From NCBI GenBank assembly GCA_946539445.1, contig CAMNHK010000001.1:9845-73844 (forward strand): 64,000 nt of DNA. The letters run 5' to 3'. The notes under the pieces were generated by a model. It was not told where the DNA came from and ran no database searches. It saw only the letters and a program-made list of their open reading frames with translations. Origin of the DNA: an uncultured Bacillales bacterium (GTDB lineage Bacteria; Bacillota_I; Bacilli_A; RF39; UBA660). Positions 59,181 to 60,413 of the stretch are shown here, piece by piece; the stretch's first letter is position 1, and each line of letters opens with the position of its first letter. A program made the position numbers and the translations under genes.

Positions 59181-60413
59181 GTGAAGAAATTTAAGAATTT
59201 CATGAAGTGGTTTGCAACTTTCTTTTTAGTCCTATTAGTGTCTTTGTGTATCTATACCTTTGTGGTAACCGATATTATGAAGAAAGATTATGTTAATGTA
59301 TTCGGTTATACCTATTTTGTAGTAGCGACAGGTTCTATGTCTGGTACGATTGAAGTCGATGATATTATTTTCGTTAAAATAACGGATAAAGTCGCAATTA
59401 ACGATATTATTACTTTCAAGAGTAAAGACGGTGATATTATTACTCACCGACTAATCAAAAAAGATGGAAGTCGTTATATTACTAAGGGAGACGTCAATAA
59501 TGTTATTGATGATGCAATTACTAAAGAACAAATTATTGGACGTGTGGATTTGATTATTTCTCCAAGCTTTATTCTAAAATCCATTGCTGTATTCTTGATT
59601 ATTTTTATTTTCTTGGCATTGGTTAACTTTGACAGTGTAGTTAAGAAATATATTGTTAAAGGGGGAGCTGAACCAGAACCTCCTAAAATTCCAGAAGCTA
59701 TTTTTACTAGTGCGGCTGTTCCTACGGCTCCACAAGAAGAACATTCTGGACTGACGGTTACGATTAGTTTGGATGATATGGAAAAACTAAATCGTTCTCA
59801 TGAAAAGGAAGTTGAACAAGAAGAAAATATAGAAGTGTTAGATACGGAAGATCAGTTTTCTTATTTGCCAAGTAAGAAAAAAGCATCTTTCTATCGAGAA
59901 AAAGAAACCGTTGATTTGGTAGTTTCCATTTTAAAATGTAAGAAGAATAATACTACAAAAGCTAAGATGAATAAGAAATGGTTAACTAAATATCAATATG
60001 TTTATAAATTATGCCATTTGCTACTATTAAAAAATACGGAACAAATTGTAGAAGAGATTAATCATCCACCATTCAAAGAAGTGTTTGATTATAACTTAGA
60101 TACTGTTGGATTAACAGAGACGATTCGTGATCGAATCTTCGATATGCCGATATCTGTATTCTTAAGAATTCTTACTTATTGTATCTTATACAATGATGAA
60201 GAGATGTTCGATGGCGTTTATAAGATTTTAAAATATAAAGTTATGTTTGATAAGAATAATGATTTCCGCGAGATTAAGAGCGTAGATTTACATACAATCA
60301 AACAAATTAAAACTTTGATTCAATTTATGAAAAAAGTTTCTGATCGATTTGATAATAAAAATGTATTTGAATTGGATAAAATTGAGAGATTGGCAAAAAT
60401 AGACAATTATTAA
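59181..60413 (+). CDS. SipW-type (archaeal/ER-like) signal peptidase I fused to a C-terminal 240-aa domain of about 240 residues
   Basis: GGTGGTGA RBS before GTG 59181. N-terminal TM helix. Ser box ATGSMSGTIEVDDIIFVK and His box DIITHRLIK match SipW/SEC11 catalytic boxes. A second TM helix follows. Then a long Lys-rich domain of unknown function. Confidence 0.6.
   Translation: MKKFKNFMKWFATFFLVLLVSLCIYTFVVTDIMKKDYVNVFGYTYFVVATGSMSGTIEVDDIIFVKITDKVAINDIITFKSKDGDIITHRLIKKDGSRYITKGDVNNVIDDAITKEQIIGRVDLIISPSFILKSIAVFLIIFIFLALVNFDSVVKKYIVKGGAEPEPPKIPEAIFTSAAVPTAPQEEHSGLTVTISLDDMEKLNRSHEKEVEQEENIEVLDTEDQFSYLPSKKKASFYREKETVDLVVSILKCKKNNTTKAKMNKKWLTKYQYVYKLCHLLLLKNTEQIVEEINHPPFKEVFDYNLDTVGLTETIRDRIFDMPISVFLRILTYCILYNDEEMFDGVYKILKYKVMFDKNNDFREIKSVDLHTIKQIKTLIQFMKKVSDRFDNKNVFELDKIERLAKIDNY

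Follow-up and report, generated by a model that had tools for sequence, protein, structure and literature searches.

Signal peptidases are usually viewed as minimal, membrane-anchored proteases that work solely at the outer face of the membrane. To our knowledge, the sole hint of a second, cytoplasmic function among them, the 20-residue tail of Bacillus subtilis SipW, has so far gone without a mechanistic explanation. A 64,000-nucleotide stretch of DNA from an uncultured Bacillales bacterium of the RF39 lineage (hereafter the window) raises the same question in enlarged form. It encodes a 410-residue SipW-type signal peptidase in which about 260 residues lie C-terminal of the second transmembrane (TM) helix. 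A preliminary description of the window, made from its sequence, had noticed this extension. What is the extension, and what could it do for a protease whose active site lies across the membrane? The architecture proves to be a real domain fusion, conserved and not described before, on a known type of peptidase, S26B, and belongs to one uncultured lineage. Confidence in the identity and architecture of this fusion is much higher than confidence in any mechanism proposed for it.

A single reading frame for peptidase and extension

Peptidase and extension are encoded by one uninterrupted open reading frame (ORF) of 410 codons. The protein consists, in order, of TM helix 1, an S26B core, TM helix 2, an acidic variable linker and a folded, Lys-rich helical domain (residues ~190-410). 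The sequence GGTGGTGA stands directly 5′ of the GTG start codon. An alternative in-frame GTG at 59166, 15 nt upstream, would add five residues to the protein; when homologues are aligned, their N-termini fit the start at 59181 rather than this one. The identical 410-residue protein (P0001) is recorded on five contigs, and the three places shown for it represent three different samples. Moreover, more than 100 homologues of 400-475 residues cover the query completely in alignments, with identities of 55-85%. Because the same protein recurs on contigs from three samples and has this many end-to-end homologues, the frame is not a product of error, and the single ORF reported in the preliminary description holds without a frameshift. 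In databases the homologues go by no more specific names than "signal peptidase I" and "S26 family signal peptidase". The size of about 180-190 residues that had been given as canonical agrees with the length of the SipW family model (189) and with the 21 kDa of B. subtilis SipW (PMC8767453).

A catalytic domain of the SipW and SEC11 type

The Ser and His boxes are located as first described, at G51-S52-M53-S54-G55-T56 and I87-T88-H89-R90-L91, and are followed by G103-D104-V-N-N-V-I-D110. The protein thus carries what distinguishes S26B, a catalytic Ser and His (no Ser-Lys dyad) together with a conserved Asp in the GD.N..D region. Among family models, the archaeal and endoplasmic reticulum (ER)-type signal peptidase I (TIGR02228, sigpep_I_arch; NCBIfam) matches residues 14-128 with 53.0 bits against a cutoff of 51.85. 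Pfam Peptidase_S24 is slightly short of its cutoff (20.9 vs 23.3), and the bacterial P-type signal peptidase model reaches only 18.3 bits. The top sequence match in PDB is human SEC11C (7p2q), with the Ser (GSM), His (HR) and GD.N..D (KGDNN..DD) motifs aligned. NF046067, the SigPepSipWBacil equivalog model, aligns only to residues 11-120 and yields 47.7 bits; because its cutoff is 190, the peptidase is classed from its sequence as SipW-like and not as a SipW orthologue. The initial assignment to SipW/SEC11-type peptidases is therefore sound for the ER/SipW type but does not extend to strict SipW orthology. With its catalytic residues intact, the protein is probably an active S26B signal peptidase.

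Structural modeling agrees with this classification. A full-length AlphaFold2 (AF2) model has a predicted local distance difference test (pLDDT) score of 69, and its N-terminal region forms a beta domain of moderate confidence (pLDDT 48-80). Foldseek relates the peptidase model to LexA, lambda repressor C-domains, Streptococcus pyogenes SipA and Staphylococcus aureus SpsB, each with probability 1.0 (E 5e-3 to 0.3; for LexA, root-mean-square deviation 2.5-3.1 Å over ~90 residues). The signal peptidase fold expected of the N-terminal part is accordingly present as an S24/S26 fold in the model, at moderate pLDDT, and TIGR02228 is matched above its cutoff. The catalytic domain is compact, at ~96 residues. 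A regular-expression scan of the window, with a pattern too narrow to be informative, returned no second signal peptidase of the P type.

Two hydrophobic segments, at about residues 11-31 and 128-150, both exceed 2.0 on the Kyte-Doolittle scale, and the latter corresponds to the second TM helix that had been proposed. The N-terminal tail contains four Lys (net +4), and a KK pair directly follows TM helix 2. Hydropathy and the positive-inside rule favor a cytoplasmic N-tail and a catalytic domain exposed on the trans side. The C-terminus of B. subtilis SipW has been placed on the cis side (PMC8767453); from the positive-inside rule and this SipW topology, the extension is predicted to be cytoplasmic.

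A conserved orphan domain behind the second TM helix

The extension comprises two parts of opposite charge. Residues 232-410, the core, contain 15.1% Lys and have a net charge of +8, while an acidic stretch with 16% Glu and a net charge of -11 spans residues 151-231. The Lys content of the core is more than three standard deviations (SD) above the window mean: in the window (31.5% GC), 40 ORFs on the plus strand encode 200 residues or more, and these contain 7.4 +/- 2.3% Lys with a maximum of 11.5%. The preliminary description of a Lys-rich domain of about 240 residues hence applies to the core but not to the acidic residues that precede it.

Conservation follows the same division. In an alignment of 26 full-length homologues, mean pairwise identity is 88% in TM helix 2 (the most conserved segment), 75% in the catalytic domain and 68% in the C-terminal core, and it lies at 41-52% in the three segments between residues 151 and 231. 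The linker just after TM helix 2 also varies in length, with inserts of up to ~200 residues in some homologues. These sequence comparisons indicate that the extension is under selection, with a core conserved nearly as well as the catalytic domain. The signature of this core reads K-Y-x-Y-V-Y-K-L ... P-x-F-x-E-x-Y-D-Y-D ... M-P ... L-Y-N-D-x-E-x-F-D-G-x-Y-K-I-L-K-Y-K, and the best-conserved positions of the whole C-terminal domain are aromatic or acidic (Y-x-Y-x-Y-K-L, P-x-F-x-E-x-Y-D-Y-D, M-P, L-Y-N-D and F-D-G-x-Y-K-I-L-K-Y-K-x-x-x-D).

Structure prediction for the extension, part of a check proposed at the outset, returned a confident independent fold. The AF2 model of residues 168-410, built from a 34-sequence alignment reaching down to 26% identity, has a pLDDT of 85.6 and a predicted template modeling score of 0.84. 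The model opens with a short strand (T192-I195, TVTI) and a long helix. A disordered, acidic loop separates these from a second strand, which pairs with the opening one and leads into a bundle of about eight helices. No relatives of this fold emerged. Searched alone and as 23 diverse members, the extension had no consistent match in Pfam, NCBIfam or PHROGs, in keeping with the first impression that it contains no recognizable motif. Sequence and profile searches of PDB gave chance-level hits only (Synembryn-B and IL-12 alpha, E 0.4-1.8), and the best Foldseek matches of the model had E values of 0.86 (PDB) and 0.59 (BFVD) with template modeling scores below 0.25. By these sequence and model comparisons, the domain represents an undescribed, lineage-restricted orphan family that matches no curated family or solved structure.

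Distribution of the fusion

An exhaustive search of 1.84 billion cluster representatives with an extension-only profile recovered only 51 clusters, and the peptidase domain precedes the extension in 20 of the 21 proteins of at least 338 residues. No standalone extension protein was found among the 51 clusters, essentially every complete member being fused to the peptidase. This search, which the preliminary description had recommended, thus identifies the extension as a lineage-restricted fusion partner of the peptidase with no free form. The one exception among the 21, P0129, comes from an otherwise normal gene (L032 2-1561) that is split by an in-frame stop in the linker, so that the peptidase ORF ends just after TM helix 2 and the C-terminal domain forms a separate ORF. 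The gene lies on a single 4.6-kb metagenomic contig; its interruption may be natural, mark a pseudogene or stem from a sequencing error. The shorter entries begin within TM helix 2 (P0127, P0130), are partial or come from very short contigs. P0121 lies on a 1.3-kb scaffold, and in P0128 and P0131 the extension follows unrelated N-terminal pieces; these features suggest that the three are chimeric or fragmentary contigs.

Two informative variant architectures were seen. P0139 (L031 7029-8747) joins the peptidase to two tandem orphan cores and a C-terminal zinc-ribbon-like Cys4 motif (CPNCG...CPNCH), and in P0125 the peptidase domain that precedes the orphan domain has lost its Ser box. When one genome per GTDB species was scanned, the fusion of peptidase and extension turned up in 27 species, all of them uncultured metagenome-assembled genomes from human gut, rumen or jejunum, labeled Bacilli, Erysipelotrichaceae, "Mollicutes" or similar. 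The architecture had not been recognized at first sight, and literature searches likewise found no description of a long SipW extension or of this fused arrangement.

An inactive paralogue and a shared tail motif

A SipW paralogue, here called pseudo-SipW, is encoded downstream of the window on the same contig. It is present in every locus with enough downstream sequence and measures 200-250 residues across loci. The SipW models align to pseudo-SipW from end to end, though with weak scores, and its catalytic Ser and His are both replaced. Because these residues are lost, its sequence identifies it as a catalytically dead pseudo-peptidase. It has an N-terminal and a C-terminal TM helix and is predicted to have both termini inside. 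Its acidic tail, cytoplasmic by this prediction, varies in length. At two loci (L028, L030) the structural genes are gone from the neighborhood and the peptidase and pseudo-SipW are still adjacent, which marks them as a core pair.

The two proteins also share a short motif. Of 23 species, 15 have a pseudo-SipW whose last four residues are (I/V)E(I/V)L, and 20 have a tail that closes with acidic residues followed by two aliphatic ones. Among 120 close homologues of the peptidase, 99 carry (I/V)E(I/V)L, likewise flanked by acidic residues, in the loop of the extension, as do several distant homologues; in the present protein the loop reads E-N-I217-E-V-L220-D. Its background frequency in the proteins of the window is 2.2e-4 per residue. 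In L013, L016 and L017 the loop reads SEIF.CDDYF, and the motif is gone from the loop and the partner tail alike. The shared loop sequence suggests that these three are one clade, so their loss of the motif probably counts as a single event. Presence of the motif is independent of adjacency to g544, an upstream gene of the same block. In terms of charge, the core (net +8) stands opposite the acidic tails of pseudo-SipW.

Genes around the peptidase

The peptidase belongs to an operon-like block in the order g233, g334, hairpin, 44-residue ORF, g544, peptidase, giant protein, pseudo-SipW and d208 (Table 1). The block is syntenic across loci, including that of a distant member at ~30% identity. 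One gene is an exception: g298 sits between g544 and the peptidase in the present genome only and has no counterpart at the loci of all 27 other species. The promoter-like site ahead of the peptidase lies just 3′ of an A/T hairpin and T-run that trail the upstream gene.

Table 1. Features of the peptidase gene and its neighbors. Positions refer to the window unless contig L001 is named, and residue numbers refer to the peptidase.
Feature	Position	Strand	Basis or remark
g233, 233 aa, N-terminal TM helix or signal, C-terminal WIEGDDPEC motif	54620..55321	+	Conserved upstream neighbor
g334, 334 aa, SipW-dependent-type signal peptide (...TSTYA/WFTAN)	55339..56343	+	TIGR04088
Terminator-like hairpin after g334	56357-56382		
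Conserved 44-aa acidic small ORF, MDSIQEISNLTDEQLLELFQIVSAHLQYLQSCILDPSIGGEEDE, no TM helix	56401..56535	+	Between g334 and g544
g544, ~541-aa helical protein, orphan family	56528..58153	+	Candidate cytoplasmic partner
g298, 298 aa, signal peptide and C-terminal TM anchor	58214..59110	+	
Promoter-like site, TTTATA-16-TATAAT with TG extension	59118..59145	+	Consensus match only
Peptidase gene, 410-aa SipW-type signal peptidase with predicted cytoplasmic C-terminal extension	59181..60413	+	GTG start, TAA stop
Residues 1-31, Lys-rich N-tail and TM helix 1	59181..59273	+	Hydropathy; AF2 helix 2-32
Residues 32-127, predicted extracytoplasmic S26B catalytic domain	59274..59561	+	TIGR02228, SEC11C alignment, Foldseek
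Ser52	59334-59336	+	Invariant in 26 homologues
His89	59445-59447	+	Invariant in 26 homologues
Asp104	59490-59492	+	Invariant in 26 homologues
Asp110	59508-59510	+	Invariant in 26 homologues
Residues 128-150, TM helix 2	59562..59630	+	Hydropathy; AF2 helix 128-158
Residues 151-189, predicted cytoplasmic linker with conserved P-(D/E)-x-(I/L)-F	59631..59747	+	Alignments
Residues 190-410, predicted folded cytoplasmic domain of orphan family	59748..60410	+	AF2 model, alignments, no family or fold match
I217-E218-V219-L220, acidic-flanked (I/V)E(I/V/L)L motif	59829..59840	+	Low-confidence loop of extension
Giant surface protein (start), ~2,699 aa, GGxIxGxVYGGG repeats	60430..64000	+	Runs past window; L001 11250-19349
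Pseudo-SipW, 207-aa SipW paralogue	L001 19392-20015		Downstream of window, same contig

The likeliest substrate lies upstream. The protein g334, syntenic in most loci, matches the SipW-dependent signal peptide model TIGR04088 with 20.4 bits (cutoff 19), so the association with a TIGR04088-type gene that is typical of SipW exists here as well. The n-region of g334 is unusually basic (MAKKENRKSRKRRK), a property kept in L031, and we take its cleavage region to resemble that of TasA. On these sequence features, g334 is a likely substrate of the peptidase. A C-terminal W-I-E-G-(D/Q)-D-(P/V)-(E/D)-C is shared by g233 and g334 (WIEGDDPEC and WIEGQDVDCE), which suggests that the two are paralogous subunits. 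Terminator-like hairpins, such as the one that follows g334, often trail the gene of a major structural subunit. The 44-residue ORF behind the hairpin is probably a real small gene because a counterpart of like pattern occurs in the distant locus L031 (5188-5328).

On the other side of the peptidase, the gene of the giant surface protein begins 17 nt downstream. The protein has an N-terminal hydrophobic segment (TM helix or signal) and no Pfam or NCBIfam match; its repeats suggest a beta-helix adhesin. Its C-terminal third is by far the better conserved part (47-69% identity vs 30-39% for the N-terminal part). Another small secreted protein, d208, follows pseudo-SipW. Apart from the signal-peptide model, the neighbors match no Pfam or NCBIfam family, and none has a sequence match in PDB, TasA structures included. 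"TasA-like" was dropped as a label for them, since their sole match is to the signal-peptide model and no solved structure resembles them in sequence. The preliminary description had looked to tapA/sipW/tasA loci for context; this locus is not a tapA-sipW-tasA operon and, by sequence, encodes no substrates of the TasA/camelysin family.

It is unusual for an operon of surface proteins to include a presumably cytoplasmic orphan such as g544. On reading, its sequence shows no hydrophobic segment, TM helix or signal, and it has no Pfam, NCBIfam or PHROG match and no Walker A motif. Its homologues (n=195) are all unnamed or "hypothetical", and their phyletic range is that of the peptidase. Homology between g544 and the extension was considered and rejected (hhalign probability 0.2%). 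An ATPase role for the cytoplasmic parts is likewise unsupported, since neither g544 nor the peptidase protein contains a Walker A motif.

Further upstream, the window encodes a 1,318-residue protein with four MucBP domains, a mucin-binding-type adhesin (43036-46992, +), and after it a protein with an SH3 domain and a YkuD L,D-transpeptidase domain (47088-48374, +). Both fit a gut-associated, surface-active lifestyle. Genes for a sigma-70-family factor, SpoVAC and SpoVAD, then ScpA/ScpB and a single tRNA also lie upstream of the block (48457-50911, 52421-53723, 53792-53875), and a second SpoVAC/SpoVAEB-family gene is called on the matching L001 contig. Because of the sigma factor and SpoVAC/SpoVAD, the host is probably a spore-former.

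What the extension may do

The preliminary description had suggested that a fused domain could couple substrate cleavage to partner recognition or regulation. We favor a form of this idea because of the predicted cytoplasmic topology, the conserved pseudo-peptidase partner and the shared tail motif. The membrane-embedded peptidase would have its two termini on the cytoplasmic side and its catalytic domain outside, where it would most likely process the surface proteins of its own operon, g334 first. Behind TM helix 2, a flexible acidic linker would lead into a folded, Lys-rich, all-helical cytoplasmic domain of ~220 residues. This domain would act as a protein-docking or regulatory module at the inner face of the membrane that binds acidic cytoplasmic tails. 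The most plausible ligand would be the (I/V)E(I/V)L-ending, or IEIL-type, tail of pseudo-SipW; the IEVL loop of the peptidase itself may compete as a ligand in cis, and the cytoplasmic proteins of the operon may perhaps be bound as well. In this way the domain would assemble or gate a complex devoted to processing the surface proteins of the operon. The C-terminal domain could then be regarded as a larger version of the cytoplasmic tail, 20 residues long, that B. subtilis SipW carries. As a whole, this docking or regulatory mechanism is put forward tentatively, its chances being somewhat below even.

A sharper version of the mechanism, which we consider rather doubtful, would make the orphan domain a dedicated receptor for acidic (I/V)E(I/V)L tails, with active and dead SipW forming a multi-subunit complex that is gated by the cytoplasmic orphans of the operon. 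This gated complex would act on both the giant surface protein and g334. A likeness exists in the clamp domains of tetratricopeptide repeats, which read the EEVD tails of Hsp70 and Hsp90. If true, this version would add both a new fold and a new control of signal-peptide cleavage from the cytoplasm.

Alternatively, the domain might report the state of the surface or of secretion to gene expression, for example by sequestering and releasing a regulator, with no processing complex involved. SipW itself provides a precedent for a non-proteolytic function of a cytoplasmic tail (PMC8767453, citing Terra et al. 2012), and the topology predicted here is the same. The pairing of peptidase and pseudo-peptidase outlasts adjacency to the structural genes in L028 and L030, as expected of a regulatory unit, and P0139 adds a zinc-ribbon-like Cys4 motif to its two tandem cores. 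However, the domain lacks any recognizable DNA-binding, kinase, cyclase or receiver motif, the operon has no conserved regulator gene, and the extension bears no sequence relation to the SipW tail, as the SipW model covers only residues 11-120. Signaling of this kind is a serious possibility, though an unlikely one.

It is improbable that the cytoplasmic part instead selects substrates by recognizing the strongly basic n-regions of cognate signal peptides, which remain in the cytoplasm while cleavage proceeds, and so confers specificity or ordered processing. This would match the partner-recognition idea of the preliminary description, would account for the unusually basic n-region of g334, and would give a role to a strongly acidic linker (net -11) tethered beside the membrane. 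Yet the linker is the least conserved part of the protein in both sequence and length, whereas the core, which is conserved, has a basic charge of its own and should repel such n-regions.

The charge of the core also raises the possibility that it binds DNA, RNA or anionic membrane lipid, for instance for localization, and has no dedicated protein partner. A Lys content of 15% with net +8, more than 3 SD over the window mean, is what such binding might lead one to expect, and the zinc-ribbon-like motif added in P0139 points in the same direction. The invariant residues, however, are mostly Tyr, Phe, Glu and Asp with a single Lys (K121) and do not form basic patches, and no helix-turn-helix or other nucleic-acid-binding family is matched. 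This makes the idea improbable. Finally, an origin of the long ORF by frameshift, misassembly or read-through fusion of two genes, to which the split gene of L032 and the few short database entries with the domain after unrelated N-termini might point, is effectively excluded by the identical ORF in three samples, the occurrence of the fusion in 27 species and in 20 of 21 representative proteins of at least 338 residues, and the strong conservation of both halves, the exceptions being single short contigs.

Relation to known systems and significance

The closest described system is B. subtilis SipW (S26B in MEROPS), and outside the membrane the present peptidase would work as SipW or SEC11 does. 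Like the present protein, SipW has an ER-type core with Ser, His and Asp between two TM helices and is encoded next to a gene whose product bears a SipW-dependent-type signal peptide; its cytoplasmic C-terminus has a predicted counterpart here. The C-terminal residues on the cytoplasmic side make SipW bifunctional, and its tail activates matrix genes on solid surfaces (PMC8767453). The SipW tail, however, measures ~20 residues against ~260 here, including a folded domain of ~220, and the catalytic domain described here is shorter (~96 residues). In contrast to the tapA-sipW-tasA operon of B. subtilis, the locus has no TapA, its neighbors show no detectable similarity to solved structures, and it adds a giant protein, a pseudo-peptidase and cytoplasmic orphans.

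Other systems resemble parts of the arrangement. Archaeal and eukaryotic SEC11-type peptidases are the best family-level match, with the Ser box, the His box and GD.N..D aligned; however, the accessory subunits of SEC11 are separate proteins, whereas here the cytoplasmic mass is fused and a dead paralogue stands alongside. In S. pyogenes, the signal-peptidase homologue SipA is essential for pilus polymerization. SipA/LepA (PDB 4n31) parallels pseudo-SipW as an inactive signal-peptidase paralogue in the assembly of surface fibers, but it is of the P type (LepB-like), belongs to a sortase-pilus locus and has neither the tail motif nor a fused cytoplasmic domain. The sipW-bsa system of Clostridium perfringens, another anaerobic Firmicute, combines a SipW-type peptidase with polymerizing surface matrix proteins; a long cytoplasmic extension is not mentioned in the abstract on that system (PMC11580942). 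By analogy, the nearest conceptual precedents would be the bifunctional tail of SipW, inactive paralogues such as SipA, and the multi-subunit signal peptidase complexes of eukaryotes.

The narrow phylogenetic range of the fusion and its uncultured hosts limit its significance. Within this range, a SipW-like tail appears to have grown into a conserved, confidently folding domain with an obvious candidate partner, a dead paralogue that carries the same motif. The peptidase and pseudo-SipW may thus offer a tractable system for studying communication between a signal peptidase and the cytoplasm. The locus also brings to light a domain family not defined before, together with a conserved operon that encodes a surface protein of ~2,700 residues in widespread, uncultured Bacilli of the gut and rumen, and this operon may bear on attachment or matrix building by these bacteria.

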